Made by a program: the position numbers and the translations under genes
The notes under the pieces: generated by a model
What the model was told of the DNA's origin: nothing
The model's database searches: none
What the model saw: the letters and a program-made list of their open reading frames with translations, nothing else
DNA from: Candidatus Falkowbacteria bacterium
Lineage (GTDB): Bacteria; Patescibacteriota; Patescibacteriia; UBA11705; JABHMO01
Direction of reading: 5' to 3'
Assembly (NCBI GenBank): GCA_018674305.1
Contig: JABHAL010000010.1
Location: 25,708-89,707, forward strand
DNA length: 64,000 nucleotides
Shown here: positions 2,769 through 58,123 of the stretch, in pieces
Layout of the letters: each line of letters starts with the position of its first letter
How positions within the stretch are numbered: the stretch's first letter is position 1

Positions 2769-3422
2769 CTAATTGATTTGTTTTGTATTTTCTTTGAACC
2801 AGGACAGTGACACGTAATTTATGTCAGTTTTGCTATCTACGTTATGAGCAACACACAAGTCTCCAGATGAATCTATAAGAAAACCAGTAACTATCCAAGT
2901 GTCAACTTGAACAGCATCTTCGTATTGATATTTTTCACCAATCACAATACCATCAAATTCATTCTTTGCCAAGTAGTACTCTTTACTATTTTCATAAAAC
3001 GGAACATCCGATTCTTTTAATACAGCACCAGGAGAAGTTATTAATACAGACCCATTCTGTCCTGGAAATTTTATAGCGATCTCGTCACTCTCTAATCTAA
3101 GAATAGTGCACCGAATCCACTTTGTAGCATTCCTATAATAAACAATATCTTCAACTGTAATTTCTTCGTCAAACTTAAGATCTTCTATTTTCACCACCTT
3201 TGTCTCAATAAACTCAACAATCTCCTCTTTCTTGGCGATGTAATCGCGCATAACTTGAAGTGCTTCATTGTCACCGGCCTCAGCTTTCTCTTTCAGTTCA
3301 GCAAATCCAAGACCACCTGAGATTTCTTCCAACTCTGACATTAATTTATCAAAATGCACTTGCTGAACTTCGGTGAAGTTAGCTTTGAGGGATTTCTCGG
3401 TTAGTTGTTCTATGCTTTTCAT
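2769..3422 (-). CDS. Paralog-family protein P1: conserved ~75-aa N-terminal helical domain plus a unique C-terminal domain
   Basis: 217 aa. The N-terminus MKSIEQLTEKSLKANFTEVQQVHFDKLMSELEEISGGLGFAELKEKAEAGDNEALQVMRDYIAKKEEIVEFIETK is shared with six other ORFs in this window; the C-terminus is unrelated to theirs. Confidence 0.7.
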   Translation of the reverse strand: MKSIEQLTEKSLKANFTEVQQVHFDKLMSELEEISGGLGFAELKEKAEAGDNEALQVMRDYIAKKEEIVEFIETKVVKIEDLKFDEEITVEDIVYYRNATKWIRCTILRLESDEIAIKFPGQNGSVLITSPGAVLKESDVPFYENSKEYYLAKNEFDGIVIGEKYQYEDAVQVDTWIVTGFLIDSSGDLCVAHNVDSKTDINYVSLSWFKENTKQIN

Positions 3423-3468
3423 ATTTGATATTTTTTAGTAGGTATTGGTTATTGGGTATTAGAAATTT

Positions 3469-3569
3469 TACTCGTTACTGTTCTCGTCCCGCATAGCGGG
3501 ATCCCGTTTGCGGGAGATTTAACATACTTAGTATTGCTTCTCTGCGTAGCGGAGTCCGCTATGCGGACG
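3469..3569. repeat. REPIN-like composite palindromic repeat (copy 1)
   Basis: The arms cccgcATAgcggg and tcccgTTTGcggga, a central agcggAGTccgct, and overall left-arm/right-arm inverted complementarity (cgtcccgcatagcggga ... gtccgctatgcggacg). About 95% identical to the copy at 4281-4380. Confidence 0.7.
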
Positions 3570-3580
3570 TGATTCATAGA

Positions 3581-4222
3581 CTATTCTACTTTTTTAAATC
3601 TATTATTAAAAGATTGTACATCTTCATTAAAAATATCATTATTTACCTTTATTTCAAAATCAAATACCCACAAAACATGAGCTATTCCAGATTGAATAGT
3701 AAAACCAACAATTTTTACCGGCCGAGCCCTGTCTGACTTCTCTATAAAATTATCACCAATCGAGTGTTCGTATAAATCTCTACTAGCTAACAACTTTGCT
3801 TCTCCAAATTGAAGAGTTTTAACGCTACGACTTGATTCCTTTAGCACAAAGCCTATGGGAGTTGTATGTTTTCCTATTGTCTCAGATAAAAACTCAACAT
3901 TATTCCCATCAATGCTTTCAACTGTACCCTTTTCAAATGTTTTACGTCCATAGGATGGAAACATGTAAACAATATCACCAATTTTTATTTTTATTTTCTT
4001 TGTTTCAATAAACTCAACAATCTCCTCTTTCTTGGCGATATAATCGCGCATAACTTGAAGTGCTTCTTTGTCACCGGCTTCAGCTTTCTCTTTCAGTTCA
4101 GCAAATCCAAGCCCACCTGAGATTTCTTCCAACTCAGACATTAATTTATCAAAATGCGCTTGCTGAACTTCGGTGAAGTTAGCTTTGAGTGAATTTTCAG
4201 TTAGTTGTTCTATGCTTTTCAT
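3581..4222 (-). CDS. Paralog-family protein P2
   Basis: 213 aa. Same N-terminal domain (about 93-96% nucleotide identity to P1 over the first ~230 nt of the CDS) with a different C-terminus. Confidence 0.7.
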   Translation of the reverse strand: MKSIEQLTENSLKANFTEVQQAHFDKLMSELEEISGGLGFAELKEKAEAGDKEALQVMRDYIAKKEEIVEFIETKKIKIKIGDIVYMFPSYGRKTFEKGTVESIDGNNVEFLSETIGKHTTPIGFVLKESSRSVKTLQFGEAKLLASRDLYEHSIGDNFIEKSDRARPVKIVGFTIQSGIAHVLWVFDFEIKVNNDIFNEDVQSFNNRFKKVE

Positions 4223-4253
4223 GAGGATTAACTATTGGTTATTGTGTATTGGT

Positions 4254-4277
4254 TATTGGGTATTGGGTATTGGGTAT
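4254..4277. repeat. Tandem heptamer repeat (TATTGGG)x3 on the plus strand, CCCAATA on the coding strand, immediately upstream of the P2 start
   Basis: tattgggtattgggtattgggtatttt. Related degenerate copies occur at 3441-3463, 56563-56590 and 57358-57393, each just upstream of a minus-strand start codon. Confidence 0.6.
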
Positions 4278-4280
4278 TTT

Positions 4281-4380
4281 ATTCGTTATTGTTCTCGTCC
4301 CGCATAGCGGGATCCCGTTTGCGGGAGATTTAACATACTTAGTATTGCTTCTCCGCGTAGCGGAGTCCGCTGTGCGGACA
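4281..4380. repeat. REPIN-like composite palindromic repeat (copy 2)
   Basis: Near-identical to 3469-3569, including the same small hairpins. Confidence 0.7.
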
Positions 4381-4390
4381 AATTTCATAA

Positions 4391-5155
4391 TTATTCATTG
4401 TCTTTTTCTAATACTTCAAAATATTCTGCAACCTTGTCAGTGTTTACCATAATCATCTTTGCAAATGGAAGGCCTTGACCAACGTTAAACATAATTTTTA
4501 CCAATATTTCAAAACCACTCTTTTGTATTTGATCTCCTCGCGGAACTGCAAATCTTTCTATTTCAACATCTTTCACGTCAATGGCCTCAATATGCCAAGG
4601 TAACTCTGGGCAGAACTCTTTAGCCATCGATTGATCAAGAAACTTTAATTTTTGCCCGACCCACAATCCATAATATTTATTTCTTTCAAACACCTCTACA
4701 AAACCTACATTTTCTACATTTATCTCATTTCCTGAAGTTTTAAAAAGCTGATCTTTGTTAACAGGGAGACTAAATCCTTCTTTCTCACCTTCCAATTTAA
4801 TATGAATTATATCAACGACGTCTGAATCTTTCCGAATGATTTCACATTTTTGCCAGACACTGTCCCTATAAATCTGGGCCTGGTCACCAGGGTGTAATTC
4901 AACTTCTTCAAATTTTCCACCCGGAAATTCCTTCTTCTCAATAAACTCAACTATCTGCTCTTTCTTGGCGATGTAATCACGCATTACTTGTAGTGCTTCT
5001 CGATCACCGTCCTCAGCTTTTTCTTTCAGTTCAGCAAAACCAAGTCCACCTGAAACTTGTTCTAACTCAGACATTAATTTATCAAAACGCGCTTGCTGAA
5101 CTTCGTCGAAGTTAGCTTTCAAAGATTTTGATTGTAGTTCAGAGTCGAAATTCAT
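4391..5155 (-). CDS. Paralog-family protein P3
   Basis: 254 aa. The N-terminus MNFDSELQSKSLKANFDEVQQARFDKLMSELEQVSGGLGFAELKEKAEDGDREALQVMRDYIAKKEQIVEFIEKK matches the family; the C-terminus is unique. Confidence 0.7.
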   Translation of the reverse strand: MNFDSELQSKSLKANFDEVQQARFDKLMSELEQVSGGLGFAELKEKAEDGDREALQVMRDYIAKKEQIVEFIEKKEFPGGKFEEVELHPGDQAQIYRDSVWQKCEIIRKDSDVVDIIHIKLEGEKEGFSLPVNKDQLFKTSGNEINVENVGFVEVFERNKYYGLWVGQKLKFLDQSMAKEFCPELPWHIEAIDVKDVEIERFAVPRGDQIQKSGFEILVKIMFNVGQGLPFAKMIMVNTDKVAEYFEVLEKDNE

Positions 5156-5161
5156 AATAAA

Positions 5162-5899
5162 TTATTTTTTTATAGCTTTTTTCAGTTTCTCAATATCATA
5201 AGAGCAAGCAAAACTCAGTGATCCTCCAGTAACAGTATTGAAATCAAAATGAACGAGAGCTAAAAGCTTATCTGGCAGACTACTATTAAAAAAAACTCTT
5301 AAAATTTTTGCGGTTTTAAGTTCATGCTTCTCAAAATCCTTCCTTACACCCTTATCCAAAACGCCCTGAATATCAAAATCATTAGGATCTATCTGGTATT
5401 TTTGAAGTAATTTTAATCCGAAAATCGACTTCACATCAAAATTATAAACAATATCGCCAACTGACATTTCTTCAGTTTTTTGAACTTTTATCAAGTCTTT
5501 TTTTAAAATCCACGGCTCCGCTACCCCGTTAACCCCTGTTCTTATTTTAATCAAATTACCGTTAGCTTCAATATCAATAACTGGACAAATCTTACCATGA
5601 TGACCAGCCCCTGGTTTCCAAAACATAACTTTGTCAAGCACTTCAATATCACATTCCCATGTTATTGGCACCTCCTTATTTTCAATAAACTCAACAACCT
5701 CCTCTTTCTTGACGATATAATTGCGCATAACTTGCAAGGCATCTTTATCACCGCCCTCAGCTTTCTCTTTCAGTTCAGCAAAACCAAGTCCACCTGAAAC
5801 TTGTTCTAACTCAGACATTAGTTTATCAAAATGTCGCTGTTGGCGTTCATCAAAGTTTGCTTTGAGAGATTTCTCTTGTAATTGTTCTAGAGTTTTCAT
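5162..5899 (-). CDS. Paralog-family protein P4
   Basis: 245 aa. Family N-terminus with a unique C-terminus. It lies 6 bp upstream of P3. Confidence 0.7.
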   Translation of the reverse strand: MKTLEQLQEKSLKANFDERQQRHFDKLMSELEQVSGGLGFAELKEKAEGGDKDALQVMRNYIVKKEEVVEFIENKEVPITWECDIEVLDKVMFWKPGAGHHGKICPVIDIEANGNLIKIRTGVNGVAEPWILKKDLIKVQKTEEMSVGDIVYNFDVKSIFGLKLLQKYQIDPNDFDIQGVLDKGVRKDFEKHELKTAKILRVFFNSSLPDKLLALVHFDFNTVTGGSLSFACSYDIEKLKKAIKK

Positions 5900-5995
5900 A
5901 TTTTAAGTATTCCCACAACCTGAAACTGGGGGAAATGTATTTTGTAGTTGTTACATGTTACATGATTTATGATACATGATTTCCACTTATTTTTC

Positions 5996-6026
5996 AACAA
6001 AAAAATCCTTACTTTGAGTAAGGACT
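5996..6026 (-). terminator. Rho-independent terminator for the 6032-6649 gene
   Basis: Stem tccttac/gtaagga (6006-6024) followed by a U-run on the minus strand (A-run 5997-6005 on plus). Confidence 0.6.
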
Positions 6027-7558: not shown

Positions 7559-8644
7559 ATGTCAAAATCAAAAAAACTTCAAGTACTATGCATCGTTCTA
7601 ATTATGACAGCTTTGCCAATTTTAGCAAGCGCAGCTGGCTTTCATTCAGGAAAAATTTATTTACAAGTAGAATCTAATGGCGAAGCCTGGTACATTAATC
7701 CAACCAGCAACAACCGCTACTATTTAGGTCGACCTGATGATGCCTTTGCAATTATGCGTGGACTTGGCCTAGGAATCACCAATGAAAATCTAAAACAAAT
7801 CCCAATTGGCCTAATCAATATTTCTGGTAATGACAATGATCTTGATGGCCTGGGCAATGATTTGGAAACTGCCATTGGAACAGATTACAACAATCCAGAT
7901 ACCGATGGTGATGACTTTTTAGACAAATCGGAAGTCGAAAGTTGGAATAATCCAAATGGTGAAGGGGCACTACCTGTAAACAATGCTTTGATTAATAACC
8001 TAAAAGGACGCATTCTACTTCAAGTTGAAAACAACGGCGAAGCCTGGTACCTAAACCCAAACGACAACAAGCGTTACTTTCTTGGACGACCGCAAAGTGC
8101 CTTTGAAATAATGCGGCAACTAGGAATTGGCATTACCAATGCTAACCTAAACCAAATTCCATCCAGCTACGTCAAAGCTGAAAAAGAAATTTCAGAACAT
8201 TATAGTATTGATTATCCGAACAGTTGGAATTTCTCACAAAACTTGCAACACTCAGACGCAGTTTATAACAAAATGACAATTGTTCACGATTCTTTATTTG
8301 AATTTTCTACCGGTGCCGGTTATTTGGAAATCCTAACCCTAGAGTCCGGAAAAGATTACACTCTGGGCGATTTCAACGTTTCCGCCAAGACAGGCGCTGA
8401 AAAAATTTACAATGAAGATTTCGTACTTGAAGTAAAGCCAGTAAAAAAACAAAAATTTAAATATCAAACACTTGTAGAATACAAAACCGAAACATTTGAT
8501 AAGGGTGCAAAGCTGTATGCCGATATAATGATCAACACACACAAGTTCATTCATATGCATATGGCAATCTTTAACGAGACTGACGTTAAACTTTACGAAG
8601 ATTATTTTAATGATATTATAAAAGACTTAAAGTTAGTTTATTAA
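7559..8644 (+). CDS. Secreted protein with two ~50-aa internal repeats and an Asp-rich calcium-binding-like segment
   Basis: Signal peptide MSKSKKLQVLCIVLIMTALPILASAAG. GKIYLQVESNGEAWYINP...GITNENLKQIP is duplicated as GRILLQVENNGEAWYLNP...GITNANLNQIP, and DNDLDGLGNDLETAIGTDYNNPDTDGDDFLD lies between the copies. Confidence 0.65.
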   Translation: MSKSKKLQVLCIVLIMTALPILASAAGFHSGKIYLQVESNGEAWYINPTSNNRYYLGRPDDAFAIMRGLGLGITNENLKQIPIGLINISGNDNDLDGLGNDLETAIGTDYNNPDTDGDDFLDKSEVESWNNPNGEGALPVNNALINNLKGRILLQVENNGEAWYLNPNDNKRYFLGRPQSAFEIMRQLGIGITNANLNQIPSSYVKAEKEISEHYSIDYPNSWNFSQNLQHSDAVYNKMTIVHDSLFEFSTGAGYLEILTLESGKDYTLGDFNVSAKTGAEKIYNEDFVLEVKPVKKQKFKYQTLVEYKTETFDKGAKLYADIMINTHKFIHMHMAIFNETDVKLYEDYFNDIIKDLKLVY

Positions 8645-12788: not shown

Positions 12789-12792
12789 AAAT

Positions 12793-12915
12793 AACCAATT
12801 GACCAATTAACCAAACTCTAAACAAATACGAATATTCAAAATACAAATTATTTTAAATTTAAAGCTTTTGAGTTTTGAATTTTAATTAGGATTTGATAAA
12901 TTGATTAATTGATAA
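12793..12915. repeat. Intergenic repeat family, copy A (CAATTGAYCAATT-ended element)
   Basis: 5' end aaccaattgaccaatt...ccaaactctaaacaaatacgaat, 3' end ttaggatttgataaattgattaattg. It aligns with copies at 15745-15900, 30512-30628 and 53443-53568. Confidence 0.65.
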
Positions 12916-12925
12916 TTAACTTAGT

Positions 12926-20521: not shown

Positions 20522-23278
20522 CTAAATTTCCTTGCCCTTCTCAACTCGAAGAGTATTTCCAACTTCAAGGATAACTTTATCGCGTCGACCAACTTCGCCA
20601 GCTAAAATCTTTTTAGCCAATGAATCATCAATCTTTTCTTGAATTGCTCTACGCAGTGGTCGCGCGCCAAACTTCGGATCAAAACCTGCTTCAGCCAATT
20701 CAGCAATAGCTGCTTCAGTAGCAGTAAATTCAATGCCCTTTTCTTTTAATCTTTTAGTTATTTTATTCACCATCAACTTAGCAATCTGAATAACATCCAT
20801 CATTGATAGCGGTTTAAACACAACAACACCATCAAACCGATTTAGAAACTCTGGTCGATAATGTTCTTTTAATTTTTCATTGATTAAGACTTCTTTAATC
20901 TCTTCAACCGATGTGCCTTTATTTATTTCATCCTGAATATATTGAGCCCCTGCATTAGAGGTCATTATTATAATTGTATTAGTAAAGTCAATTGTACGCC
21001 CCTGAGCATCAGTCAATCTTCCATCATCCAAAACTTGCAAAAACAAATTTAAAACATCTGGATGTGCTTTTTCAACTTCATCAAACAAAAGTAAGGCAAA
21101 CGGATTTTTGCGAACTGCCTCAGTTAAAATACCAGTGTTAGAACCAGAACCTATTAAACGATCAATACTGGACCGCTCCTGATACTCAGACATGTCAGTA
21201 CGAATCATAGCATTTTCATTACTAAAATAAACCTCGGCAACGGTTTTGGCTAACTCGGTTTTACCCACACCAGTTGGACCAAGAAACAACATACTGGCAA
21301 TTGGGCGCTTTCCTTCCCGAAGCTCAGCTCTCGCGCGCCGCAAACTGGTAGCGACAATATTTACCGCCTCTACCTGATCGATCATGCGTTCATGAATTCT
21401 ATCCTCCAGATTTAATAATTTTTCACTTTCTTTTTGAGTAACTTGGGTTAATGGAATGCTGGTTAAATTTGAAATAACCGCTGCTACATCCTCACCACCC
21501 ACAACCTTATTTTCCCCTCGTTCTTTTTTTACCTTTATAGCAGACTGTTCTAGTATTTCAATTGCCTTTTCAGGTAAATAACGATCATGAATGTACCTAG
21601 AAGATAAAATTGCAGCTTTCTCAATCGCAGAATAGGAAAAATAAACATGGTTCTGATATTCCATTGGTCCACTTTTGGCTTCCAAAACTTGAATAGCATC
21701 ATTAAGTTCAAGTTCTTCAACTTTTACCGTCTGAAAGGCTGAATCCAAGCTCTTGTTTTCAACTGCTCCAAGATAACCATCTCCAGTAGTAGTGGCTACT
21801 ACATGAAACAAATGCTTAGAAAGTAATTGAGCGAATACTTCAGACAAATCTAAACTCTGTTCACCGCCAGCTGTAATGCCATGTAAATTATGCAAATTCT
21901 CCACTGCTAAAACGATATTTCTGGCTCTCATTGCCTCATTGATAATCAACATCAAGCGCTGTTCCGCTGCAGCCGCATCAGCACCAGCCAGTAAACTTGA
22001 AATATTTAAACTAACTAAACGTTTATCTTGCAAAATTTCGGGTACATCCTCAGCTACCATTTTTTGGGCCAATCCTTGCAAAATTGTAGTTCGCCCAACA
22101 CCTTGATTTCCAACCAACAATACGCCTTGTCGACTACCCTCAATAATACGAAACATTTGCTCAAACTCTTTTTCACGACCAATACAAGGGAAAAACTGTC
22201 CGTATTTAGCCTGTAAAGTTAAATCTTCACTAAATCTATCTAACATTGGTGTAGCGATCGCAGTCATGGCCCTATCCATACCTGACTTAGGTTTATAACG
22301 AGCTTTGCCTTGATATCTTTGCCAATTTTTTCTTAACTGATCCTGAATACGAACCCAGGCTACTACATTCTTCACTTGTTGATAATTCAATCCAAAATCA
22401 ATTAACAATTCTTCGACATCATCCTTTTCCACCTCGGTTTTTTCTGGTGAAGCTAAAGCCAACACAATTTCCGCTAAATCAACTTTTGGCCAATGTCCTT
22501 CATACGCTTCTAAATAAGCAACAATAAGCAAACGATGCATTTCCTCAGACAAAATCGGATTACCCGGTCTTGCAATAATATGTTTAGATAAATATCTACT
22601 TATTTTCTTTTTTAATTTATCAAATGAAACTCCCAATCGTCCCAAAATAATCGCCGACTTGTTGAACTGGAACAAAACACCCAATAAATGAACGCGCAAT
22701 ATTTCATGATGTTCAAAGTGCCCAGCCAATTCCCAACTCGCCTGAAGAGCTTTCTTGGATTCAACTGTAAAAGACTTGGAAATATCAACCAACTTACTCT
22801 TTTTTAATTTCCAGACTTCTTGCCAATCCAAAGAAGGATTAGGAAATTCACTCTTTTTATGAAAATGTTTAGCTAACACATTATATTTAGCTGAACTTTC
22901 CTGATCTAATCGATAATATAAATATAGATCTACTAATAAAGTCAACCAAAAATACATTTTTTCAAAACTTGGAGTTGACCAATATTTCAAAGTAAAAAAT
23001 GAACTAAAGTTATCAAGATAACCAATATAAGCCATAACTATAAATCCAGAAATACCAAAAAGCGCTAATACAGCATTAATAATCAAACGTACTTTGCGAA
23101 TTCCTTTTTCGTAAGCATTATTTACAGGATCATAAAACTGTCCCCAATATAAAACTTTGTCTTCAAGAAAATAGACTACGCCAAGCCCACGACAGGTATT
23201 ACATAACAGCCCATCAGTATATCCGGCTCCATCGCACTCTTGGCAAACTAAAAAATTGTTATCTAATTTCTCACTCAT
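20522..23278 (-). CDS. ClpC/ClpB-family AAA+ ATPase with N-terminal zinc ribbon and transmembrane segments
   Basis: 918 aa. N-terminal CQECDGAGYTDGLLCNTCRGLG (a 4-Cys motif) and hydrophobic helices (LIINAVLALFGISGFIVMAYIGYL), followed by Clp-N-like repeats, AAA-1 (GNQGVGRTTILQGLAQ) and AAA-2 (LGPTGVGKTELAKTVAE). Confidence 0.85.
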   Translation of the reverse strand: MSEKLDNNFLVCQECDGAGYTDGLLCNTCRGLGVVYFLEDKVLYWGQFYDPVNNAYEKGIRKVRLIINAVLALFGISGFIVMAYIGYLDNFSSFFTLKYWSTPSFEKMYFWLTLLVDLYLYYRLDQESSAKYNVLAKHFHKKSEFPNPSLDWQEVWKLKKSKLVDISKSFTVESKKALQASWELAGHFEHHEILRVHLLGVLFQFNKSAIILGRLGVSFDKLKKKISRYLSKHIIARPGNPILSEEMHRLLIVAYLEAYEGHWPKVDLAEIVLALASPEKTEVEKDDVEELLIDFGLNYQQVKNVVAWVRIQDQLRKNWQRYQGKARYKPKSGMDRAMTAIATPMLDRFSEDLTLQAKYGQFFPCIGREKEFEQMFRIIEGSRQGVLLVGNQGVGRTTILQGLAQKMVAEDVPEILQDKRLVSLNISSLLAGADAAAAEQRLMLIINEAMRARNIVLAVENLHNLHGITAGGEQSLDLSEVFAQLLSKHLFHVVATTTGDGYLGAVENKSLDSAFQTVKVEELELNDAIQVLEAKSGPMEYQNHVYFSYSAIEKAAILSSRYIHDRYLPEKAIEILEQSAIKVKKERGENKVVGGEDVAAVISNLTSIPLTQVTQKESEKLLNLEDRIHERMIDQVEAVNIVATSLRRARAELREGKRPIASMLFLGPTGVGKTELAKTVAEVYFSNENAMIRTDMSEYQERSSIDRLIGSGSNTGILTEAVRKNPFALLLFDEVEKAHPDVLNLFLQVLDDGRLTDAQGRTIDFTNTIIIMTSNAGAQYIQDEINKGTSVEEIKEVLINEKLKEHYRPEFLNRFDGVVVFKPLSMMDVIQIAKLMVNKITKRLKEKGIEFTATEAAIAELAEAGFDPKFGARPLRRAIQEKIDDSLAKKILAGEVGRRDKVILEVGNTLRVEKGKEI

Positions 23279-25304: not shown

Positions 25305-25997
25305 ATGATGGAAGCTACGCTAATTGGTGTTTTTGTTTTAAGTGTACTTATCTTCTTGTATTGGACATGGACACTTATGTTTGTACGGAACATAGACACT
25401 GAAGCCTTTATGGCCCAGATTCAAAAACTGATCATGGCCAACAACCTTGACCGAGCAATTAAACTTTGTAATGCTGCCCCAAATGCAGTCATGACTCAGC
25501 TGACTAAAAGCGTTTTGATTTGCGCTAATCAACCACACAGATTATATCTAGCCTATCTACAGACGACTTTCAAGCTGAATCACGAGGCGAAAAACCTAAA
25601 AAAATCTCCAACCCGAATCACAATTATTATTCTCATTTATGGGCTACTAGTAATGGGTTTCGTTGTGCAACCTCTAGGCTGGACGTTGGGTGCGGTTCTA
25701 GGCATCATTGCTTTTGTTTTGCTATCGCTGACCTCTGCGTTCATTTCCGCTCGTCTTGTCAAAACCAAAAAGGACAAGTTATACCTATTCAGGCTGATGG
25801 ACCTCTTGCAATATCGAATGGCTAATTACAACACGGATGAATCCAACGAAGGCCTAACTTTTATGCAAGCCAGGCCACTAACTGAAGACGAACTAGCCAG
25901 GCGCATGTCAACTGGGGCGCCTCCCCCGAAGGTTAGACCTTCGCCAGTGGACGAACTCAAATCAAAATTGCAATCCGAACTATTACCCAAGCTTTAG
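25305..25997 (+). CDS. Hypothetical membrane protein (paralog A of a tandem pair)
   Basis: 230 aa with ribosome-binding site GAAGGAGGG. Topology is TM1, a soluble segment containing NNLDRAIKLCNAAP, a TM2-TM3 hairpin, then a C-terminal tail. GC is elevated (~45-48%). Confidence 0.65.
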   Translation: MMEATLIGVFVLSVLIFLYWTWTLMFVRNIDTEAFMAQIQKLIMANNLDRAIKLCNAAPNAVMTQLTKSVLICANQPHRLYLAYLQTTFKLNHEAKNLKKSPTRITIIILIYGLLVMGFVVQPLGWTLGAVLGIIAFVLLSLTSAFISARLVKTKKDKLYLFRLMDLLQYRMANYNTDESNEGLTFMQARPLTEDELARRMSTGAPPPKVRPSPVDELKSKLQSELLPKL

Positions 25998-26009
25998 GGA
26001 GGACGAATA

Positions 26010-26708
26010 ATGCTATTTGTGATTGGTATAATACTCTGTGTATTTGCAGGTTTAACGATCCTTGGTTCCATAATCGAAATAATGAAAGAAAGTATCGCTA
26101 TTACTGCCTTCATGCATCAGGTAAAAAAGCTGGTTCTGAGCAATAATATTGATCGAGCAATTAAGTTGTGTAACTGCGCGCCCCATTCAACGTTAGCCGT
26201 TGCAGCTAAAAAGCTGTTAACTAGAGCTAACAAGAACAGTGCGCTGTACCAAACATTTTTACAAGCCAAAATGGAACTTGAGATAGAAAGTTGGTCAAAC
26301 AAGTCTGCTACCAAATGGGCTTTGTGGAACCTAACACTTGCAATTGGATTTTTCACTGCTGGCTCTATGTACAACATGTTATTCGAGGGAGCGCTTTTGT
26401 GCGGTATTGCCTATACCAGTTTCTCACTAGCACAGTTTGTGTCCTCATTCAGACACAAACTGCTTTGCAAAGAGATTCCAGCCCTAGAGGACTTACTCCA
26501 AACACTAATGGAGCGCTTAGGGGTAACTGCCCCTGACTTTGCTCTATTAGATAATCCATCTCAGGAACTGCTAGCTAAACAAGAAAAGCTAATGGAAGCC
26601 TTTGAGCGGAGTTACACCAAAGACAAAGATGCTGGTCGAGAAACTCGACCGGTAGAAGCTGTTTTCCTCGAGAAGATAGATCTACGAACCGGTCTTTTCC
26701 CTGCTTAG
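26010..26708 (+). CDS. Hypothetical membrane protein (paralog B of the tandem pair)
   Basis: 232 aa with ribosome-binding site AGGGAGG. It shares NNIDRAIKLCNCAP and the same topology as 25305-25997. Confidence 0.65.
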   Translation: MLFVIGIILCVFAGLTILGSIIEIMKESIAITAFMHQVKKLVLSNNIDRAIKLCNCAPHSTLAVAAKKLLTRANKNSALYQTFLQAKMELEIESWSNKSATKWALWNLTLAIGFFTAGSMYNMLFEGALLCGIAYTSFSLAQFVSSFRHKLLCKEIPALEDLLQTLMERLGVTAPDFALLDNPSQELLAKQEKLMEAFERSYTKDKDAGRETRPVEAVFLEKIDLRTGLFPA

Positions 26709-27972: not shown

Positions 27973-28515
27973 CTATTTATCTTCGATAACACGTACCATT
28001 GCCGGCGGAGTGGCCAGCTGAAGTGGCTGATCGCACAGCATGTACGTCCCGCTCCACTCTAGGTAAACATCATCCGTAGTAAAGAAGAAAACCGCGTCAC
28101 CATTGGTTCCGTACGAACCATCGAGCTGCGGGCTTTCCACAACCTTACCACCAACACGTCTACGTGCAAAAGGATCATCGACAATCTGTTCACCAGTAGT
28201 TAACTTGGAGTTAACACTGGAGACCTTACCCTTGATAGTATGAAAGGCCATCACCTTACCATAGCTAACCAGGTAAATGTAGCTGATCTTGTTCGGATCA
28301 TTGAAACGGTTAAGCCGCTTTGACAGGTTATCTCGCTCCAAAGAACTCTCGATCTTGGGCGGCGGCGTGGCCTTGATCAGACGACCCTGCTGCTCTTCCG
28401 TGAAATTGGCCTCTGCCTTCTGGGTCTCACCCTGGCCCTCGTAGGACTCATCATCACAACCAACAAAGGCAGTGAACGCGAAAACACACGCAATTGCCAG
28501 CATAATTTTCTTCAT
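27973..28515 (-). CDS. Lipoprotein paralog 1 (unknown family)
   Basis: 180 aa with signal and lipobox AFTAFVGC. Conserved core LIKATPPPKIESSLER...ISYIYLVSYGKVMAFHTIKGKV...VESPQLDGSYG...PLQLATPP. Local GC is about 50-55%. Confidence 0.7.
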   Translation of the reverse strand: MKKIMLAIACVFAFTAFVGCDDESYEGQGETQKAEANFTEEQQGRLIKATPPPKIESSLERDNLSKRLNRFNDPNKISYIYLVSYGKVMAFHTIKGKVSSVNSKLTTGEQIVDDPFARRRVGGKVVESPQLDGSYGTNGDAVFFFTTDDVYLEWSGTYMLCDQPLQLATPPAMVRVIEDK

Positions 28516-29102
28516 TTCGACACCTCCTCGTCGCTCGTATCAGTCTTGGGATTATCCTCAATAATGCGAACCATCTCCGGAGGAGTAGACAGCTGAAGTG
28601 GTTGGTCGCTCAGCATGTATGCACCGTTCCACTCCAAGTAAATATCGTCCGTGGTGAAGAAGAAAACCGCATCGCCATTAGTTCCATATGAACCATCGAG
28701 CTGCGGGCTTTCTACTACCTTACCAGACCTGCCCTCATGATGAGCAAAAGGATCCTTCACGATCTGCTCACCAGTAGTCAACTTTGAATTAACACTAGAA
28801 ACCTTTCCCTTGATTGCATGAAAGGCCATGACCTTACCAAAATCGACCAAGTAGATATAACTGATCTTGTTGGGATCATTGAAACGAACAAGACGCTTGG
28901 CCAAATTCTCACGCTCCAAAGAGCTCTCGATCTTGGGCGGTGGGGTGGACTTGATCAGACGACCCTGCTGCGCTTCCGTGATCTTAGCTTCTTCCTTCTG
29001 GGTCTCACCCTGGCCCTCATAAGTTTGCTTTTCCGTCTTGCAGCCAACAAAGGCAAACGCCAGAATCAAGCTAAACAAAACCAACGTCTTTCCAGTCCTC
29101 AT
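28512..29102 (-). CDS. Lipoprotein paralog 2
   Basis: 196 aa with lipobox AFAFVGC and ribosome-binding site GAGGAGG. It is about 70% identical to paralog 1, and its stop overlaps the paralog 1 start (ATGA). Confidence 0.7.
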   Translation of the reverse strand: MRTGKTLVLFSLILAFAFVGCKTEKQTYEGQGETQKEEAKITEAQQGRLIKSTPPPKIESSLERENLAKRLVRFNDPNKISYIYLVDFGKVMAFHAIKGKVSSVNSKLTTGEQIVKDPFAHHEGRSGKVVESPQLDGSYGTNGDAVFFFTTDDIYLEWNGAYMLSDQPLQLSTPPEMVRIIEDNPKTDTSDEEVSK

Positions 29103-29274: not shown

Positions 29275-29817
29275 CTACTTGTCTTCGATCATCCGGACCA
29301 TGGCCGGTGGCGTAGACAGTTGCAGTGGCTCAGTAAGCCACATGTAATCACCTCGCCACTGGACCAATACTTCTTCTGTAGTCCAGAAGAAGATCGCGTC
29401 TTCACTCGGACCATAGGATCCGTCCAATCCAGGACTTTCCATCGTATGTCGAGTTCGTCCAGCGCCAGTTGATCCATCGCCGACCTCGACAACCTGATCA
29501 CGCGTAGTCAACTTAGACGAACAATAAGTAACCTTGCCCTTCACCGTATGAAAGGCCATCACCTTGCCATAACTGATCAAGTAAATATAAGAGATTCGAT
29601 CTTCACGATTGATCTCCTTGAGATACTTCACCAGATTCTCCCGCTCTAGAGAATTTTTCATCTCCGGCGGAGGAGTCGACTTGAGTAACCGTTCCTGGTT
29701 CCTCTCTGTCATTTCCATCTCATCGATGGTAGTCTGGCCAGTATCCAGCGCCTTACCGCAACTGATCATACCCATAGCCAGAACACAGAGAGTAACAATC
29801 GTCATAAGCTTCTTCAT
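29275..29817 (-). CDS. Lipoprotein paralog 3 (diverged)
   Basis: 180 aa with lipobox GMISCG. It is about 45% identical to paralogs 1 and 2 and conserves the TPPPEM, ISYIYLISYGKVMAFHTVKGKV and PLQLSTPPAMVRMIEDK blocks. Confidence 0.7.
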   Translation of the reverse strand: MKKLMTIVTLCVLAMGMISCGKALDTGQTTIDEMEMTERNQERLLKSTPPPEMKNSLERENLVKYLKEINREDRISYIYLISYGKVMAFHTVKGKVTYCSSKLTTRDQVVEVGDGSTGAGRTRHTMESPGLDGSYGPSEDAIFFWTTEEVLVQWRGDYMWLTEPLQLSTPPAMVRMIEDK

Positions 29818-30473: not shown

Positions 30474-30497
30474 AAAAACAGGCAAATAACGCCTGCT
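30474..30497 (-). terminator. Rho-independent terminator after the helicase gene
   Basis: caggc-aaataac-gcctg followed on the minus strand by a U-run (plus aaaaaa 30474-30479). Confidence 0.5.
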
Positions 30498-30511
30498 TAA
30501 TAACAAAGAAA

Positions 30512-30628
30512 CAATTAACCAAATCCTAAATAAACACAAAATATCAATGCTTAAAATATAAAAATAACTTTTGAATTTAAATATTATAATTTGTTTAGAA
30601 TTTAGAGTTTGATTCATTGATCAATTTG
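30512..30628. repeat. Intergenic repeat family, copy C (5'-truncated)
   Basis: acaattaaccaaatcctaaataaac...cttttgaattt...ttagagtttgattcattgatcaattt. Confidence 0.6.
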
Positions 30629-32593
30629 TCAATCTACATAAATAACATCTTCGCCCTCATCATTAAACCCATACGGCTGATGTCCTTGCTTCATATACTT
30701 TGATTCATCTAACTCACGGATGAACATAGACGGTTTGGAAAATACCTCACCGAACTTGTAACTAAACGAACGAACCGGGAACAACATATTCAATTCATCC
30801 TTGGCTCTCGTGGCCGCCACGTAAAACAAACGTCGTTCTTCCTCCAACTCGCGCGGATTGTCAATAGATTTATGGTGAGGAAAATGACCATCGCGTAATC
30901 CGATTATAAAAACTACTGCCCACTCCAAGCCTTTGGCTTGATGAATTGTGGACAAAATCACTGCGTTCTTGTCATGTTCATGCTCATCAGCAAACGACTC
31001 ACTAAGCATCACGTCAGTTAAAAGTTTATCCAAATCATTATACATTGCCACAAAGTTAACCAATTGACCTAAGTCATCCAGGCGGTCACGATAATTCTCA
31101 TAAGCATTTTTCAAATACTCTTCATAACCATGCGCTAAAACATATTCCACTGCCTCGGCAATATAACCTTTTTGATTTTTATCTAAATCTTTCAGAAAAC
31201 TAAAAGTTGAAGAAATCCTTCCCCAGCTAATTGCAGCTTTACCCGTTAACTTTAAATTTCCATCGATTAATTCGCTCAGCTCACCGAATTCCTGAATTTT
31301 TTTCCAAATAACTTCAGCTCTTTTCATTCCAATGCCTTCATACATTAATAAAATTCGTTTCCAGGAGACCTCATCCTGATAGTTAGTTAAAACTTTTAAA
31401 TAGGCCACAACGTCTTTGACGTGAGCTTGCTCAAAATAGCGCATACCACCGCGTACAACGTAAGGAATATTTTGTTTTGATAGTTCCAGTTGAATTTCCG
31501 CTGATTGAAAAGTTGCGCGATACAAAACTGCCATTGATTCATAATTAACACCATCACGATACAGTTGCATTATTCTTTTGATAATCAAACTAGCCTGTTG
31601 TTGCTGATCACGTGCGGCAATCAAAGTTGGTAAAATATTATCTCCTCGGTTTGGTTTTAATGCTTTTTGAAATTGATCCACGTTATGCTCAATACTATTA
31701 TTTGCTAAATCTAATATTTGAGGAGTACTACGATAATTAGTTTCAATTTTGTAAATTTTGGTTTTTGCAAACAGTTTAGGAAAATTTAATATGTTCTTTA
31801 CATCAGCAGCGCGAAATGAATAAATACTTTGTGAATCATCACCAACTACCAGTACATTATTATGAAATGACGACAAATGTCGAATAATTTCCGCTTGGAT
31901 GTAATTTGTATCTTGATATTCGTCAACCAAAATGTATTCAAACTGCTTGGCAAATCTTTCTTTGATATCTGGGAATTGCTCTAACAGTCTCAACCAATTC
32001 ACTAAAAGGTCATCAAAGTCCATCACGTTGGCAACTTTTTTCTTTTTATTATAAATAAAAGCAATCTCTTCACATTTTTCCGCAATAAAATCAGGGTAAG
32101 AATAATACACTTCAACCACCTCACGAATATCTTGATTGGTGTTTCGGGAATAACTAATCATACCTTGAACAATACTGGCCTTAGGAAAATTCTGCCCTTT
32201 AACATTCAACGCCAATTCTTCCATCGCGGCCTTAACCAAACTGATTGAATCAGCTTGATCTAAAATATTGAAGTTTCGATTATAATCTAGCTTGTCAGCG
32301 TATTTACGAAGAACTCTATTGGCAATACGATGAAATGTACCGCCCCACAAATGATCAGGGTTAAATCCTAACAAATTTTCTACTCTGGCTAACATTTCAT
32401 TGGCCGCTCTATTGGTAAACGTAACCAACAATATACTTTCAGGTTTTATCCCACATTCTACTAAATAAGCCACACGAAAAACTAAAGTGCGTGTTTTTCC
32501 TGACCCGGCGCCCGCCAAAACCAAACAAGGGCCGTCCGATTCGGTAACGACTTGATATTGTTCTTTATTTAGTAGTTTTTTATACTCAATCAT
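30629..32593 (-). CDS. UvrD/PcrA/Rep-family ATP-dependent DNA helicase
   Basis: 654 aa. Motif I is LVLAGAGSGKTRTLVFRVAYL, with DEYQDTN-like motif II and the rest of the helicase motifs. Confidence 0.88.
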   Translation of the reverse strand: MIEYKKLLNKEQYQVVTESDGPCLVLAGAGSGKTRTLVFRVAYLVECGIKPESILLVTFTNRAANEMLARVENLLGFNPDHLWGGTFHRIANRVLRKYADKLDYNRNFNILDQADSISLVKAAMEELALNVKGQNFPKASIVQGMISYSRNTNQDIREVVEVYYSYPDFIAEKCEEIAFIYNKKKKVANVMDFDDLLVNWLRLLEQFPDIKERFAKQFEYILVDEYQDTNYIQAEIIRHLSSFHNNVLVVGDDSQSIYSFRAADVKNILNFPKLFAKTKIYKIETNYRSTPQILDLANNSIEHNVDQFQKALKPNRGDNILPTLIAARDQQQQASLIIKRIMQLYRDGVNYESMAVLYRATFQSAEIQLELSKQNIPYVVRGGMRYFEQAHVKDVVAYLKVLTNYQDEVSWKRILLMYEGIGMKRAEVIWKKIQEFGELSELIDGNLKLTGKAAISWGRISSTFSFLKDLDKNQKGYIAEAVEYVLAHGYEEYLKNAYENYRDRLDDLGQLVNFVAMYNDLDKLLTDVMLSESFADEHEHDKNAVILSTIHQAKGLEWAVVFIIGLRDGHFPHHKSIDNPRELEEERRLFYVAATRAKDELNMLFPVRSFSYKFGEVFSKPSMFIRELDESKYMKQGHQPYGFNDEGEDVIYVD

Positions 32594-44906: not shown

Positions 44907-45707
44907 TCATTTTTTAATCACACTCTCACTAAACAAAACATAATCAAACAAACCAAGCGTTGGCGAATATCGAGGCATATCAACCATTAATCGATGACTA
45001 GCTTGGCCTTGTTTGCCCAAAGCTTCAATACTTAAAGTATTAGGAAAAGCTTTGGATTGGCCTGATGCATTGTCCAATGAATATAATTTTATCGTTAAAT
45101 TATCAGCGGTACTATAAAGCGCCTTGACTCGCACTCTATAATTACCAGAACTGCTAATATAATTATTCAAAGCTGAATTTGAAGGTTGTCCGCCACTATA
45201 AAGAAATTTTTGAACTGCTAAATCTTCCAACTCCCAATCAAGTGGCAGGACTGGCCATTTAAACACAAAATTATTCGGCCATTTAATTATGGAAACCTCC
45301 AACCAAGTGGTTGATCCTTGCCAATCAAAATAAACCGATTCAATCTGACTGGTCTGAGTATTTTTTTCTGGAGTAAACAGGTCAAACTGCACTGTTTGAT
45401 TAGTTGGTAGATCTAATTTTAATTCTTTAACTGCCTCACTATCAACATCCAAATCACAATCAATATCATCCACGTTACAATCCCCAGCCATTGGTAATCT
45501 ATCCAGTTTTCTAATTGAGTATAGTGCTTTTTCGATTCCACTCTCAGCATTATAAAAAGCTGATTGAGCCGTGGTAATCAAGCCGGTCTGAACAATAGAA
45601 CTACGTACCAGATTGGAAAGCACGATCGTGGAACTTAAAATTGCCGCAATGGTTAAAAGCGAATAGATCAATACATTTCCTTGTTGTGATTTAAATTTTT
45701 TTTCCAT
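44907..45707 (-). CDS. PilX-N-like minor pilin / pseudopilin
   Basis: 266 aa. N-terminal QQGNVLIYSLLTIAAILSSTIVL resembles the PilX N-terminal segment. Confidence 0.5.
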   Translation of the reverse strand: MEKKFKSQQGNVLIYSLLTIAAILSSTIVLSNLVRSSIVQTGLITTAQSAFYNAESGIEKALYSIRKLDRLPMAGDCNVDDIDCDLDVDSEAVKELKLDLPTNQTVQFDLFTPEKNTQTSQIESVYFDWQGSTTWLEVSIIKWPNNFVFKWPVLPLDWELEDLAVQKFLYSGGQPSNSALNNYISSSGNYRVRVKALYSTADNLTIKLYSLDNASGQSKAFPNTLSIEALGKQGQASHRLMVDMPRYSPTLGLFDYVLFSESVIKK

Positions 45708-45763
45708 TTTTAACCTTAATAATTTTTCACTTTATGAACTTTACAAACTTTCAACTTTACAAC

Positions 45764-46330
45764 TTATCTCGCATAATAACGTGAACTAATCGTGGTCTGT
45801 AAAGCTAATGGTTTTTGGTCCTCCTCATGTACCGCAACTGGCAAAGCTTTTAAATAAATTGTTATTTGCGGTTGTTTATCACTTTTGTACTGCTTAGTTA
45901 TATTATCAAACTCAAGCGGGTCTTCATTCGGAGCAATTCTAAAACTTAAACTTTGAATATCAAAATTATCCGCTGAAATTATTGATCTCTGATCATCAAT
46001 TGACTGAATTAAGCAAGTTTCTATTCCTAATGCACAACCAACAGTTTCAGTTCCAAATGCAACTTTTTGGTTTTGTGAATTTATCAAATGGAGTTCATCC
46101 TGCAATTCATTTATAGGCAAGTGATATGCTGAATAGTCAATCTGGCTCAAACGAATCTGCTGAGCAATTTGCTCCATATTGTACTGTAAATCAACCATAG
46201 ATTTTTGCATAACCATACTTTTTCTTTGAGAAATAGTTACTGATAAAAAAATATCACTAACCACAAGCATCATGGTCATAAAAACGGCCATTACCACCAA
46301 CATTTCAATTAAGGAAAAACCTTTTTTCAT
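45764..46330 (-). CDS. Type IV pilin-like protein (prepilin N-terminal cleavage/methylation domain)
   Basis: MKKGFSLIEMLVVMAVFMTMMLVV is a class III signal with Gly-Phe and Glu+5. Confidence 0.75.
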   Translation of the reverse strand: MKKGFSLIEMLVVMAVFMTMMLVVSDIFLSVTISQRKSMVMQKSMVDLQYNMEQIAQQIRLSQIDYSAYHLPINELQDELHLINSQNQKVAFGTETVGCALGIETCLIQSIDDQRSIISADNFDIQSLSFRIAPNEDPLEFDNITKQYKSDKQPQITIYLKALPVAVHEEDQKPLALQTTISSRYYAR

Positions 46331-46332
46331 AA

Positions 46333-49300
46333 TTATTTAACTTCCCTCGCGATATAACAACTTTCCGTCAAGTCATACCCCCCGCCTACCTTACCATTAA
46401 ACGCAAACGGCTCTGACAAAGTTACATTTTTGTTTGGTTCTCTAGAATACTTAGTTATGTGAGCAATTGTCATACTGTAATTTGAAATCGTACCTGATAC
46501 ACCTGGAACAATTACCTTTTTAGCACCTCTTTTAACAGCGACTTCTTGCATTTGATCCAAGAATTTCTCAATTAAATAATTGATGTCTAAGTCTGCTTCT
46601 CCAGGCACATCAAAACCCCGAACCAACAAAACCTTATCGCCATTTCTATCTTCTAGTTCAAACATCAAAACTGATCCTATAAATTCAGCATCTCCCAGTT
46701 CATCTTTTACCACAAACTTATAAGGAACAACATTAGGATATGTTTTCAATAAAGGATACTCAGCCGTATAACAAACATCCGCAATATATCCAGCCATTTC
46801 GCCAACAAATCCACGATCAGGAATTAATTTAACATCCAGTGGCGCGCCAGTTTCTACTTTAGAGAAATTAGCTACCTCAGCTCTAAGCGGATCAACCTGA
46901 GACTTGAACAATTTAGAAACATCCACCAGTTTAGAATTATCCTTAGCTCCAGTAATTTGTTTCCAAGCTTCTTCAGTCCAATAACCTTCTTCGTTTTTCT
47001 TTTGCGTATTTATTACATGATCTTTAATAAAGTTATCCACAATATTAATAATATTCAAAACTCCTTGTGCTGTCACTTCCCCTTCTAGTCCACTGATTAA
47101 ATTTTCTAAAGTTTCAGGTGAAAAATTAACTGTGAATAATTTTTTCAGAATAATCTGTCGCAAAACCGGGTATATTTCTGATTTACTAGCAAAGCGTCGA
47201 TCAACCGATAGTAATGGTATCAATAGAGCATCCAAGTCCTGAGCAGCTTGAACATCTGCTAATATTTTTTCATAATTTGAATATTGCATCTTGATATATT
47301 TATTATCCGGTTTCTTGACCAGGATTTCCTGGAGTTCCTTGAGCTTCTCACGAATTCGTACTTCGGCTTTACTTTTCAATCCAGTTATATCTTTTGGATT
47401 TTCTGAGGCCTCAAATATTTCTGCTCGCAAAAGCTCAAAATCTGCCTGTACTTTTTCAACATTAACTTCAAGTCTAATTCTAGGAACAGACACCTCAATA
47501 ACTTCATAACCAGCAGGCAGTTCTGTAATTTCACCAGCACTAAAATCGCTATTCCAATCTTCAATAATTTTTTCCATCCTTGGTCGACCACTATCGAATC
47601 GGTGAGTACTTTTACCAGTCATTAGACGTAAAATCTCCGTTTCAAATGTATTATATTCTTCAAGTTCTCCGATTGTATCTTCAGAATAGAGTAGTTGTTT
47701 TATTTTATCTAACCGTTTCTCCAACTCCTCAACATTGGTTATCCCTTGAGCAACTTGTTCTTCAGGCAAATCAATACCTTTTTGCTCATGCAGAACAATA
47801 TTCCGATAATATTCAAATATTATTTTAGTTTTTGACAATCCAAATCGTTTCACATACTCAATTGAGATGTCAAAACTTTCTTGATCTAGTTCAACAGTTG
47901 GCTCATAACCACCAAATATATTACTCATAAACTGACTTGTTCTATCATAATCATTGTGAGTGAATGCGTTTCTCTTTTCGTTTGATTTCTTAGGTAAAAC
48001 ATCCAAGAACTCCTCTACTTTTTGTTCACCAAAAACTAATTTCCAAACTTCTTTTCCGCCGAAACGAATAAACGAAGTAGAATCTTTTTGAGCGACCTGT
48101 TTCAAACTCTTTTCTATTTTTTTCAATACTTCTGAGTAATCACTTGAATTATATATAGCAGATTCAATCTCAGAAACCGTCCACTCATCTTCCCTACTTC
48201 CATTTTTTGATAAATTATCAGCAAAATTATAATATTCAATAATTTTCCTAACGAAATCAAGCTGACCTTTTTTTTGAAAGTCATATTTTTCTAATAATCC
48301 TTGTATCAGCTTAGCTGGCCAACTTATAATTATACCGAGTAACTCACTTCTGCCTGCCTCATCTTTTAGCACAGCTGGGTCTTGATAAACATTATTTAAA
48401 CTTTCTTCAAGTCCTGGTTCTTCCTCGAAATAATTTTTGTGCGCCATTACCATTTTTGGGAATTCCAGGAAATCTCCATTTTCTGGATTTGCCATTAATT
48501 TCATTAAAACCCCATTTGGTTTATTGCCTGCATCATTAATAATATCAAAAAACAGGTCTTCCCTTCTTAATCCCAGCTCATTACAAATTTTATTAAAAAA
48601 TATTACATGGTCAGCATCATCAGGATCAAAGTCCTCAAACAAGCGCTCAATATGTGCCCTGATTAACTCCGTCTTATCAAGACCAAGCTTTTTTGCAATC
48701 CCCACTAACTTGACTAGAACCTCTTCTTTTCCACCACTCAAATGATAAAAAGCTGACAATTCATCTTTCGTCCAATTATGTTTTTCCTTCAATTCCTCGC
48801 ATATTTCTTCATTATACACAATCGCCTTGGGAAATCGAATCATATTCCGAGGAGAAGCTATCTGATTTAAATAGGAATCCTCATCTACTAATATTTTGAT
48901 AACTTTTTGTTTTTCTTCAGGCAATGTAACTAAATATTTCTGCAATACATCCTCAGGTAGTTCACGGCCCAATAAAGCTATCTGATAAACTGCTGTTGAA
49001 ATTGTATCTCCACGTTTTTCTCTAAATGCATATTGCAAAAACATATCCAGCGCCTCAGGTCGGCCCAATGCTCTCATAGTAGGCATAGCCATTGACGGAT
49101 CACCTCTTTCGTCCATTAAATTTTCATTATTCAAAGAATTAAGGACTAAACCAGTAAATTCGGCAACTTCATCTTCAGCCACTAAGCCAGATTCAACTAA
49201 ACTCGGGGCTAGGGTGTTCCAATGATGACCTCTCTTTCCTCGAACTTCAAATGCCGTTATGTTACCTGGAATCAAATCTCTACGAATTTTCATTTGTTCT

Positions 49301-50418: not shown

Positions 50419-50419
50419 A

Positions 50420-51043: not shown

Positions 51044-51047
51044 AAAA

Positions 51048-51560: not shown

Positions 51561-51561
51561 A

Positions 51562-53417: not shown

Positions 53418-53442
53418 AAAATAAAATATTAATTATTAATTA

Positions 53443-53568
53443 CCAATTGATCAATCACCTAAAATCTAAATAAACCTAAATGAACAAATTCGAAAATAAT
53501 TTCAAACCTTTGGAAATTTTTATTTTAAATTTATCTGGGACTTAGAGTTTTGATCCATTGATTAATTT
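53443..53568. repeat. Intergenic repeat family, copy D
   Basis: taccaattgatcaatcacctaaaatctaaataaacc...ttagagttttgatccattgattaattt. Confidence 0.6.
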
Positions 53569-53605
53569 CATTAGCTTTATTATAACAAATTTTACCCATT
53601 TTGGC

Positions 53606-57311: not shown

Positions 57312-57391
57312 AATTTTCAGTAAACGGTAAACGTTAAACAATAAACCTTTAATTACTTATTGGATATTAGGTATTGGGCATTTGATATTGG

Positions 57392-58117: not shown

Positions 58118-58123
58118 AGTTAA

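Follow-up and report, generated by a model that had tools for sequence, protein, structure and literature searches.

A lineage-specific gene family of Candidatus Falkowbacteria joins a near-invariant helical head to variable C-terminal domains

Seven genes at two tandem loci in a 64,000-nucleotide stretch of DNA from Candidatus Falkowbacteria, a marine bacterium with a small genome (GenBank assembly GCA_018674305.1, contig JABHAL010000010.1; hereafter the window) encode proteins that begin with the same N-terminal module of about 75 residues, here also called the head, and continue into different C-terminal domains, or tails. The seven are members of a multigene family specific to the Candidatus Falkowbacteria lineage, in which a constant helical head of ~75 residues precedes a variable C-domain. 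The family is uncharacterised and lineage-restricted and belongs to none of the known families tested. Its tails diverge fast or are replaced while the head stays near-invariant, and tandem duplication has enlarged it, now and then with recombination where head and tail meet. Our leading, if tentative, explanation is that the proteins are lineage-specific adaptors in the cytoplasm, all binding through the constant head to a common partner or to one another's heads. The genes and their modules are as follows (nt, nucleotides; aa, amino acids; HMM, hidden Markov model; pLDDT, predicted local distance difference test score).

5162–5899, minus strand: gene D, 245 aa, N-module and a C-domain of the D/P0029/P0017 subgroup
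4391–5155, minus strand: gene C, 254 aa, N-module and a divergent C-domain of the tandem-barrel class (barrel HMM E=3e-4)
3581–4222, minus strand: gene B, 213 aa, N-module and a C-domain of the tandem-barrel class (E=1.5e-25)
2769–3422, minus strand: gene A, 217 aa, N-module and a divergent C-domain with marginal likeness to the barrel class
58124–58843, minus strand: gene G, 239 aa, N-module (58616–58843) and two SH3/Tudor/KOW-like barrels, model pLDDT 91
57392–58117, minus strand: gene F, 241 aa, N-module (57890–58117) and tandem barrels, C-domain 44% identical to that of G
56589–57311, minus strand: gene E, 240 aa, N-module (57084–57311) and tandem barrels
5675–5899, minus strand: N-module of D, codons 1–75
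4931–5155, minus strand: N-module of C, codons 1–75
3998–4222, minus strand: N-module of B, codons 1–75; with the upstream spacer, one copy of the A/B repeat (3998–4396)
3198–3422, minus strand: N-module of A, codons 1–75; with the upstream spacer, the other copy of the A/B repeat (3198–3586)
5969–5997, minus strand: best sigma-70-like promoter match upstream of D, TTGAAA-17-TATCAT, a consensus match only

A first-pass annotation of this DNA had described four consecutive minus-strand genes with a common N-terminal domain at 2769–5899 and three more members at 56589–58843. Both groups (A to D and E to G) are present, and a six-frame HMM scan found exactly seven module copies in the window. The start of gene E was set at the ATG at 57311, which agrees with the family and with the public protein; the TTG at 57341 does not. 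Gaps between genes are 6 nt (D–C and G–F) or 80 nt (F–E), and the remaining spacers of the first locus measure 158–168 nt and hold no open reading frames (ORFs). A terminator-like hairpin (6004–6026) is followed by the candidate promoter of D, and at the other end of the locus the start codon of murC lies 1 nt past the stop codon of gene A. All seven N-termini are hydrophilic on direct reading of the sequence and contain no signal-peptide-like segment, as the first-pass annotation had also said.

The module is held constant as protein rather than as DNA. The seven copies share 76–94% amino acid identity with 45 invariant positions, yet 128 of 195 nucleotide sites in the module are polymorphic, and the differences fall mostly at third codon positions. 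A nucleotide identity of 93–96% between copies had been claimed; this is true for the A/B pair alone, which is 95.1% identical over the first 225 nt, and the remaining 20 pairs range from 71.6 to 83.1%. Nei-Gojobori estimates on a 65-codon core gave synonymous divergence (dS) of 0.5–2.2, nonsynonymous divergence (dN) of 0.05–0.17 and dN/dS of 0.03–0.16 for all window pairs except A/B, for which dS is 0.17. In several comparisons with copies from related loci, synonymous sites were saturated. Because synonymous sites are near saturation for every pair but A/B, it is purifying selection on the protein, not ongoing gene conversion, that keeps the module near-invariant. Three further lines were considered and set aside. 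GAPDH as a yardstick of conservation compares two GAPDH-type proteins (window 52425–53417 and related locus L001 1187–2248; 36% identity) that by locus tags come from the same genome and are hence paralogues, and the penicillin-binding protein (PBP), a second candidate yardstick, again gave paralogues (25% identity). The acidic charge of the head was dropped as a functional clue, the tails being just as acidic.

Structure models were made for gene G and for the isolated head. In its model the head is a bundle of helices, with a pLDDT of about 90 at residues 20–70, and we take it to be a three- or four-helix bundle without known relatives. Searches of Pfam, NCBIfam, PADLOC, PHROG and PDB returned no relative of the head, which bears out the initial impression that the module matches no nameable domain. 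A word-indexed protein search gave mainly short fragments; the family was revealed when 1.84 billion cluster representatives were searched exhaustively with HMMER. This search gave 47 clusters carrying the head at E<=1e-10. In all 47, the head begins at residues 1–8; the proteins are 143–445 aa long, and every member with a name is a hypothetical protein from Candidatus Falkowbacteria.

The tails contain both related and unrelated domains. Within the window, the C-domains of E, F and G are 37–44% identical to one another. In an iterative search controlled by reversed and shuffled decoys, none of which scored, the B tail joined this group at E=1.5e-25, and the tails of A (0.03) and D (0.24) were marginal. 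The C tail matches the barrel-class HMM as listed above, the first barrel of D gives a weak match to the E/F/G profile, and profile-profile probabilities against the barrel groups were 46–83% for B, C and D, compared with 0.1–0.3% for unrelated tails. Judged by these comparisons, the tails of B, C, E, F and G are divergent homologues, with A and D marginal. The C-termini had been described as unalignable, a description that fails for the first five and leaves A and D with marginal signals. The G tail was modelled confidently as two SH3/Tudor/KOW-like barrels in tandem, matching the layout of two five-stranded small barrels of the Tudor, KOW and SH3 superfold.

Across the wider family, tails fall into at least eight unlinked groups, which include the barrel class, WD40 propellers, other propeller-like domains, helical domains and an alpha/beta domain; they are folded domains of 126–504 aa. 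The WD40 tails of two members (P0041 and P0042) score 81 and 38.5 bits against PF00400, for which the cutoff is 27, and the leucine-rich repeat (LRR) tails of a third lineage (L016) match solved LRR proteins in the PDB at 1e-9 and 5e-10. Profile searches of the PDB with the alpha/beta and helical tail classes gave no match. Scaffolds well known for binding ligands or proteins make up most of the tails: tandem SH3/Tudor/KOW-like barrels, propellers (WD40 and others), LRRs and helical repeats. The idea of a constant module with swappable C-domains stands at the level of the family, where unrelated folds follow the same head.

The alpha/beta tail (query tails L007 7241–8212 and 10001–11038) represents a widespread Patescibacteria domain without a Pfam family. 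Its many homologues in other Patescibacteria (P0086–P0114) carry it behind different helical N-termini. Strongly conserved motifs are TPEGKE, GFDKMIIIPE, GLRIILTK and a C-terminal LGCRLxGSFE, and the domain may be an enzyme.

At least 23 copies of the head, amounting to ~2% of genes, occur in one Falkowbacteria metagenome-assembled genome (MAG; locus-tag prefix HN858_). They are distributed over six loci (HN858_00240, 00555–00565, 00890, 02285–02295, 03410–03415 and 05140–05185), namely the two window loci, L001 (a pair after recA), L007 (1+7 members between aminoacyl-tRNA synthetase genes), L009 (three after an AddA-like helicase) and L010 (three after serS). In a second species, eight copies (one disrupted) lie between genes for a PBP and a Mur ligase, two more follow secY-adk-map and three follow a YkuD-domain gene. 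One member there (L014 11539–12225) consists of a 56-aa head fragment with a separate ORF after it, and is either a frameshifted or decaying copy or a sequencing error. Two further lineages have diverged heads that are 33–41% identical to the window type, each common to the tandem paralogues that carry it: at L011 and L013 the diverged head is joined to barrel and propeller tails, and at L016 to LRR tails.

A contig with a homologue of the alpha/beta tail, from another Patescibacteria lineage (L017 7839–11909; JGI Ga0376277_0005641), contains four tandem genes with a different helical head (MLCPQLKQNLETIKTLK...), the copies of which are 55–72% identical and joined to at least three different tails. 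It is an analogous system with an apparently unrelated head, in which the layout of one head and many tails recurs. Since the alpha/beta tail sits behind other N-termini and the L017 head joins several tails, heads and tails have evidently been recombined in evolution.

The window matches a second NCBI assembly (GCA_018670895.1, contig JABHIS010000004.1), whose start falls inside gene D, and independent assemblies show the same gene arrangement. A scan of GTDB representative genomes found no family locus; a metagenome scan found one. Public assemblies break or mis-join within the repeated head, and many database entries (P0001–P0010) are head-only fragments at contig ends. Copy numbers from public MAGs are therefore underestimates. 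One scaffold (L006 1619–1945) joins the G head to the C-terminus of cytidylate kinase at an A-rich k-mer. The head fusions P0009 and P0010 were not accepted as real, given that junction and the single low-coverage scaffold behind it, and were treated as an assembly chimera.

How might such a family work? The heads are alike throughout a genome, vary from lineage to lineage, and have almost nothing but binding scaffolds as fusion partners. On these grounds we propose that the head is a docking or co-assembly module, which would tether every paralogue to one shared partner. This partner could be a hub protein or machine, or the heads of other paralogues. Head variants differ between lineages and are shared by the tandem paralogues within each, which would be expected if head sequence tracks a lineage-specific partner or the other heads. 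Each variable tail would recruit a different target, and the family would function as a set of interchangeable cytoplasmic adaptors by the logic of F-box substrate receptors. By analogy, the architecture resembles that of known head-tail adaptor families.

Gene neighbourhoods offer leads to the partner. Family genes share orientation with tightly spaced housekeeping genes, and peptidoglycan or division genes directly flank 5 of 10 loci (murC-murB, murI, alr/ftsQ-like, PBP with Mur ligase, and YkuD). These neighbours may hint at a hub in cell-envelope synthesis, as a lead and not as proof. At L007 (2158–8212), two genes immediately precede a family member, with 22 nt in between. They encode a 770-aa protein that has an HExxH motif and a VWA/MIDAS domain (DxSxS motif), and an 861-aa ATPase of the AAA_5 (MoxR-like) type. 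This pair is a candidate partner machine, a lead from one locus. A bolder version, which we regard as speculative and rather doubtful, casts the head as the part that docks in a hitherto unknown substrate-receptor system of bacteria, equivalent in prokaryotes to F-box/DCAF/BTB logic. Some two dozen receptors with WD40, LRR, propeller or Tudor-like tails would then bring different clients to one conserved machine, for which the candidates would be the MoxR-type AAA_5 ATPase with its VWA/MIDAS partner (L007), an atypical Clp ATPase, or a divisome or peptidoglycan-synthesis complex.

Several points weigh against the adaptor explanation. The GAPDH yardstick for conservation of the head compares paralogues of one genome rather than orthologues, and the neighbourhood signal comes from few loci that are partly non-independent. 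The alpha/beta tail, with its conserved Cys-Arg motif and many Patescibacteria homologues, is no recognisable binding scaffold and could be an enzyme. Additionally, the head might be so strongly conserved because it has an activity of its own or serves in targeting.

A targeting role is unlikely, yet it accounts for several features of the family. The head would be a domain for non-classical export or for targeting, comparable to the PE/PPE, WXG/LXG or MIX markers, and the proteins would be a repertoire of binders, secreted or delivered to the surface, with which this presumed episymbiont acts on its host. PE/PPE and LXG families show the same pattern of many tandem copies in which variable C-domains follow a conserved helical hairpin or bundle at the N-terminus; WD40, LRR, propeller and SH3-like tails are typical of host-interaction proteins. 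Additionally, reading of the sequence places type IV pilin-like proteins and a prepilin peptidase-like gene in the window (44907–52374). The architecture of PPE proteins is summarised in PMC5484515. Against export, there was no Pfam match to PE, PPE, WXG100 or LXG at E<=1, and a YxxxD/E-type motif went unmatched on reading the sequence. No secretion ATPase, chaperone or other secretion gene flanks any of the ten loci, and the genes sit within cytoplasmic housekeeping operons (murC, recA, aminoacyl-tRNA synthetases).

An intrinsic activity would give the head an autonomous function, be it regulatory, chaperone-like or in binding a small ligand, and the family would be an ordinary lineage-specific expansion of paralogues with no common hub. 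Strong purifying selection is equally expected for a domain with its own activity, and no partner of the head is known. We nevertheless consider this account improbable. An activity housed in 75 residues without detectable relatives elsewhere among 1.84 billion representatives would be unusual, and the account leaves unexplained both the wholesale replacement of heads between lineages and their uniformity within each genome.

The DNA of genes A and B bears on a different possibility, that the constant 5' module is a recombination handle. The two genes have in common a block of ~400 bp (3198–3586 versus 3998–4396) that covers the spacer, from the preceding gene's stop codon onward, and the head up to precisely codon 75; past this point the DNA of A and B is unrelated. 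This block represents one visible recombination or duplication event. Each copy of the block includes a G+C-rich hairpin element:

4295–4379, minus strand: 85-nt G+C-rich hairpin element in the C–B spacer
3484–3568, minus strand: second copy of the 85-nt hairpin element, in the B–A spacer, 97.6% identical to the first

The element is more conserved than adjacent synonymous sites and folds into four short hairpins or one long stem (fold z-score -3.8). Rfam has no match to it, and neither the rest of the window nor ~200 kb of related loci contains a further copy. It may serve in processing or as a terminator, or may be a mobile repeat of small size.

If the module were such a handle, conversion or unequal crossing-over would shuffle 3' cassettes and produce a contingency or antigenic-variation repertoire. 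The sharply bounded A/B block, with 95% identity in the head and tails that are unalignable as DNA, fits this expectation. Adjacent copies also tend to share longer exact runs (55 nt for C–D and 62 nt for L7g–L7h, against a median of 18 nt), and a GENECONV-like permutation test on runs of concordant polymorphic sites gave its best nominal conversion signals for the adjacent pairs C–D (P about 0.001) and L9b–L9c. No tract survived Bonferroni correction for multiple tests, and in 20 of the 21 window pairs the divergence described above is well short of the near-identical DNA, maintained by conversion, that is the hallmark of contingency and antigenic-variation systems (72–83% identity, dS 0.5–2.2). 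No silent, promoterless or head-less cassette was seen in the window or in the ~200 kb of related loci. Orphan C-terminal cassettes had been named as a feature to look for; a barrel-class HMM found none in this DNA, the one head-less match being cut by a contig end. Additionally, all copies are in direct orientation, no recombinase lies nearby in the window, and the arrangement is identical between independent assemblies. Of the ongoing recombination or gene conversion first suggested, the single A/B event remains, set against near-saturated dS and the lack of a significant tract, and we think it quite improbable that the module serves as a recombination handle.

WD40 and LRR domains are common sensors of bacterial STAND/NLR-like defence proteins. 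A polymorphic-toxin or anti-phage sensor-effector repertoire, which would match the layout of constant N-terminus and variable C-terminus and the WD40 and LRR tails, is nonetheless very improbable: no toxin fold or family was found in any tail tested, gaps of 6 nt or ORF-free spacers of ~160 nt leave no room for immunity genes, a STAND NTPase domain is absent, PADLOC gave one generic repeat match only and PHROG no meaningful match, so that the toxin/effector, contingency and defence readings of the first-pass annotation find no toxin or immunity genes, orphan cassettes or NTPase to build on.

Other features of the window were recorded alongside the family. A second tandem array on the minus strand (27973–28515, 28512–29102 and 29275–29817) consists of three genes for lipoprotein-like proteins of 180–196 aa, whose N-termini resemble signal peptides and which match no Pfam family; genes one and two of the array are ~82% identical in DNA over 470 nt. 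An AT-rich intergenic element of ~130 nt occurs in three copies (12789–12925, 30497–30629 and 53411–53577) with mutual identity of 68–72%. Its ends are inverted repeats (CCAATTGATCAAT...ATTGATTCATTGAT), and it may be a repeat resembling a miniature inverted-repeat transposable element or a long terminator hairpin. Two adjacent plus-strand genes (25305–25997 and 26010–26708) encode membrane-protein paralogues that are 32% identical, share the motif NN(L/I)DRAIKLCN and match no Pfam family above cutoff. On the same strand, 7559–8644 encodes a secreted-looking 361-aa protein without a Pfam match and with an internal duplication (7664–7804 versus 8021–8161, 73% DNA identity). The minus-strand gene at 46333–50418, amid the type IV pilin-like and prepilin-peptidase-like cluster, encodes a 1361-aa protein without a Pfam match. 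Lastly, 20522–23278 (minus strand) encodes a Clp-type double AAA+ protein (AAA_2, ClpB_D2-small). Its N-terminus has a Cys-rich CxxCxGxG-like motif, then hydrophobic segments, and no recognisable Clp N-domain; this N-terminus is possibly a non-standard adaptor-binding region.

Compared with known systems, the family differs most plainly from those built on toxins, NTPases or short peptides. For polymorphic toxin systems (LXG, Rhs, CDI and similar), no C-terminal toxin family was found in Pfam, NCBIfam or PADLOC, no cognate immunity gene lies directly downstream (gaps of 6, 80 or 158–168 nt without ORFs), and no LXG, WXG100, PT-TG or MIX trafficking domain was matched at the N-terminus. The central P-loop NTPase of STAND/NLR-like proteins occurs in no member, and PADLOC was negative. 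Precursors of ribosomally synthesised and post-translationally modified peptides (RiPPs) with long leaders, of the NHLP type or the prochlorosins, likewise have a near-invariant N-terminal part of ~70–80 aa, variable C-termini and many tandem paralogues, and a Gly-Gly falls within the conserved part here as well. RiPP precursors end in short core peptides, whereas the tails here are folded and 126–504 aa long, and no RiPP modifying enzyme or peptidase-transporter gene lies nearby. The Gly-Gly sits in a mid-module loop, its first Gly is Asp in many members, and 40 more conserved residues and a folded domain follow; the double-glycine leader idea was rejected on these grounds.

Closer parallels are found among proteins with helical N-terminal modules. 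In the effector-associated and Death-like homotypic modules described by the Aravind group, a conserved short N-terminal helical module is thought to join proteins head-to-head. There too, one helical N-module occurs in several neighbouring proteins with different C-domains. In contrast, among all detectable members here no NTPase, protease or nuclease carries the head, and the context is housekeeping rather than a defence island. The PE/PPE proteins of mycobacteria and the LXG/WXG substrates of type VII secretion are likewise large families, often in tandem, with a conserved N-terminal helical domain and variable C-termini; in them the helical head mediates pairing and recognition by the machine. 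Our family differs in having no sequence match to them (the PE and PPE domains of Pfam included), no type VII components near its loci, no ESX-like genes in the loci examined and no toxin/immunity pairs, and in its placement within housekeeping operons. The GpsB/DivIVA adaptors of cell-wall synthesis also have a small N-terminal helical domain, which serves as a cytoplasmic docking site, and their link to the cell wall parallels the association of our genes with peptidoglycan and division genes. GpsB and DivIVA occur in one or two copies, in contrast to a 23-member family with swapped tails, and no Pfam match to the DivIVA domain was obtained at E<=1.

F-box substrate receptors of SCF ubiquitin ligases (FBXW, FBXL and FBXO) likewise combine a small N-terminal helical module with WD40, LRR or other binding domains, in many paralogues per genome. 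No F-box family appeared among the Pfam matches of the seven proteins at E<=1, and the head does not show the three-helix F-box fold that binds Skp1. C-terminal WD40, LRR and other domains of the substrate-binding kind are present in our family, as in F-box receptors. In the latter, the constant head is the contact to a single hub and the tail determines the target, which is the arrangement proposed here. Candidate Phyla Radiation bacteria have about 1,000 genes, a large share of them of unknown function, and when ~2% of such a genome goes to one family with an ultra-conserved orphan head and a range of protein-binding tails, a network of interactions that is both important and lineage-specific is implied. 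Were a common hub to bind the head, the family would offer a direct handle on an uncharacterised machine in an uncultured phylum, and would be a rare bacterial case of the receptor swapping known from eukaryotic ubiquitin ligases. Should the substrate-receptor version hold, the analogous lineage-specific heads elsewhere in Patescibacteria would make it a general organising principle of these reduced genomes.

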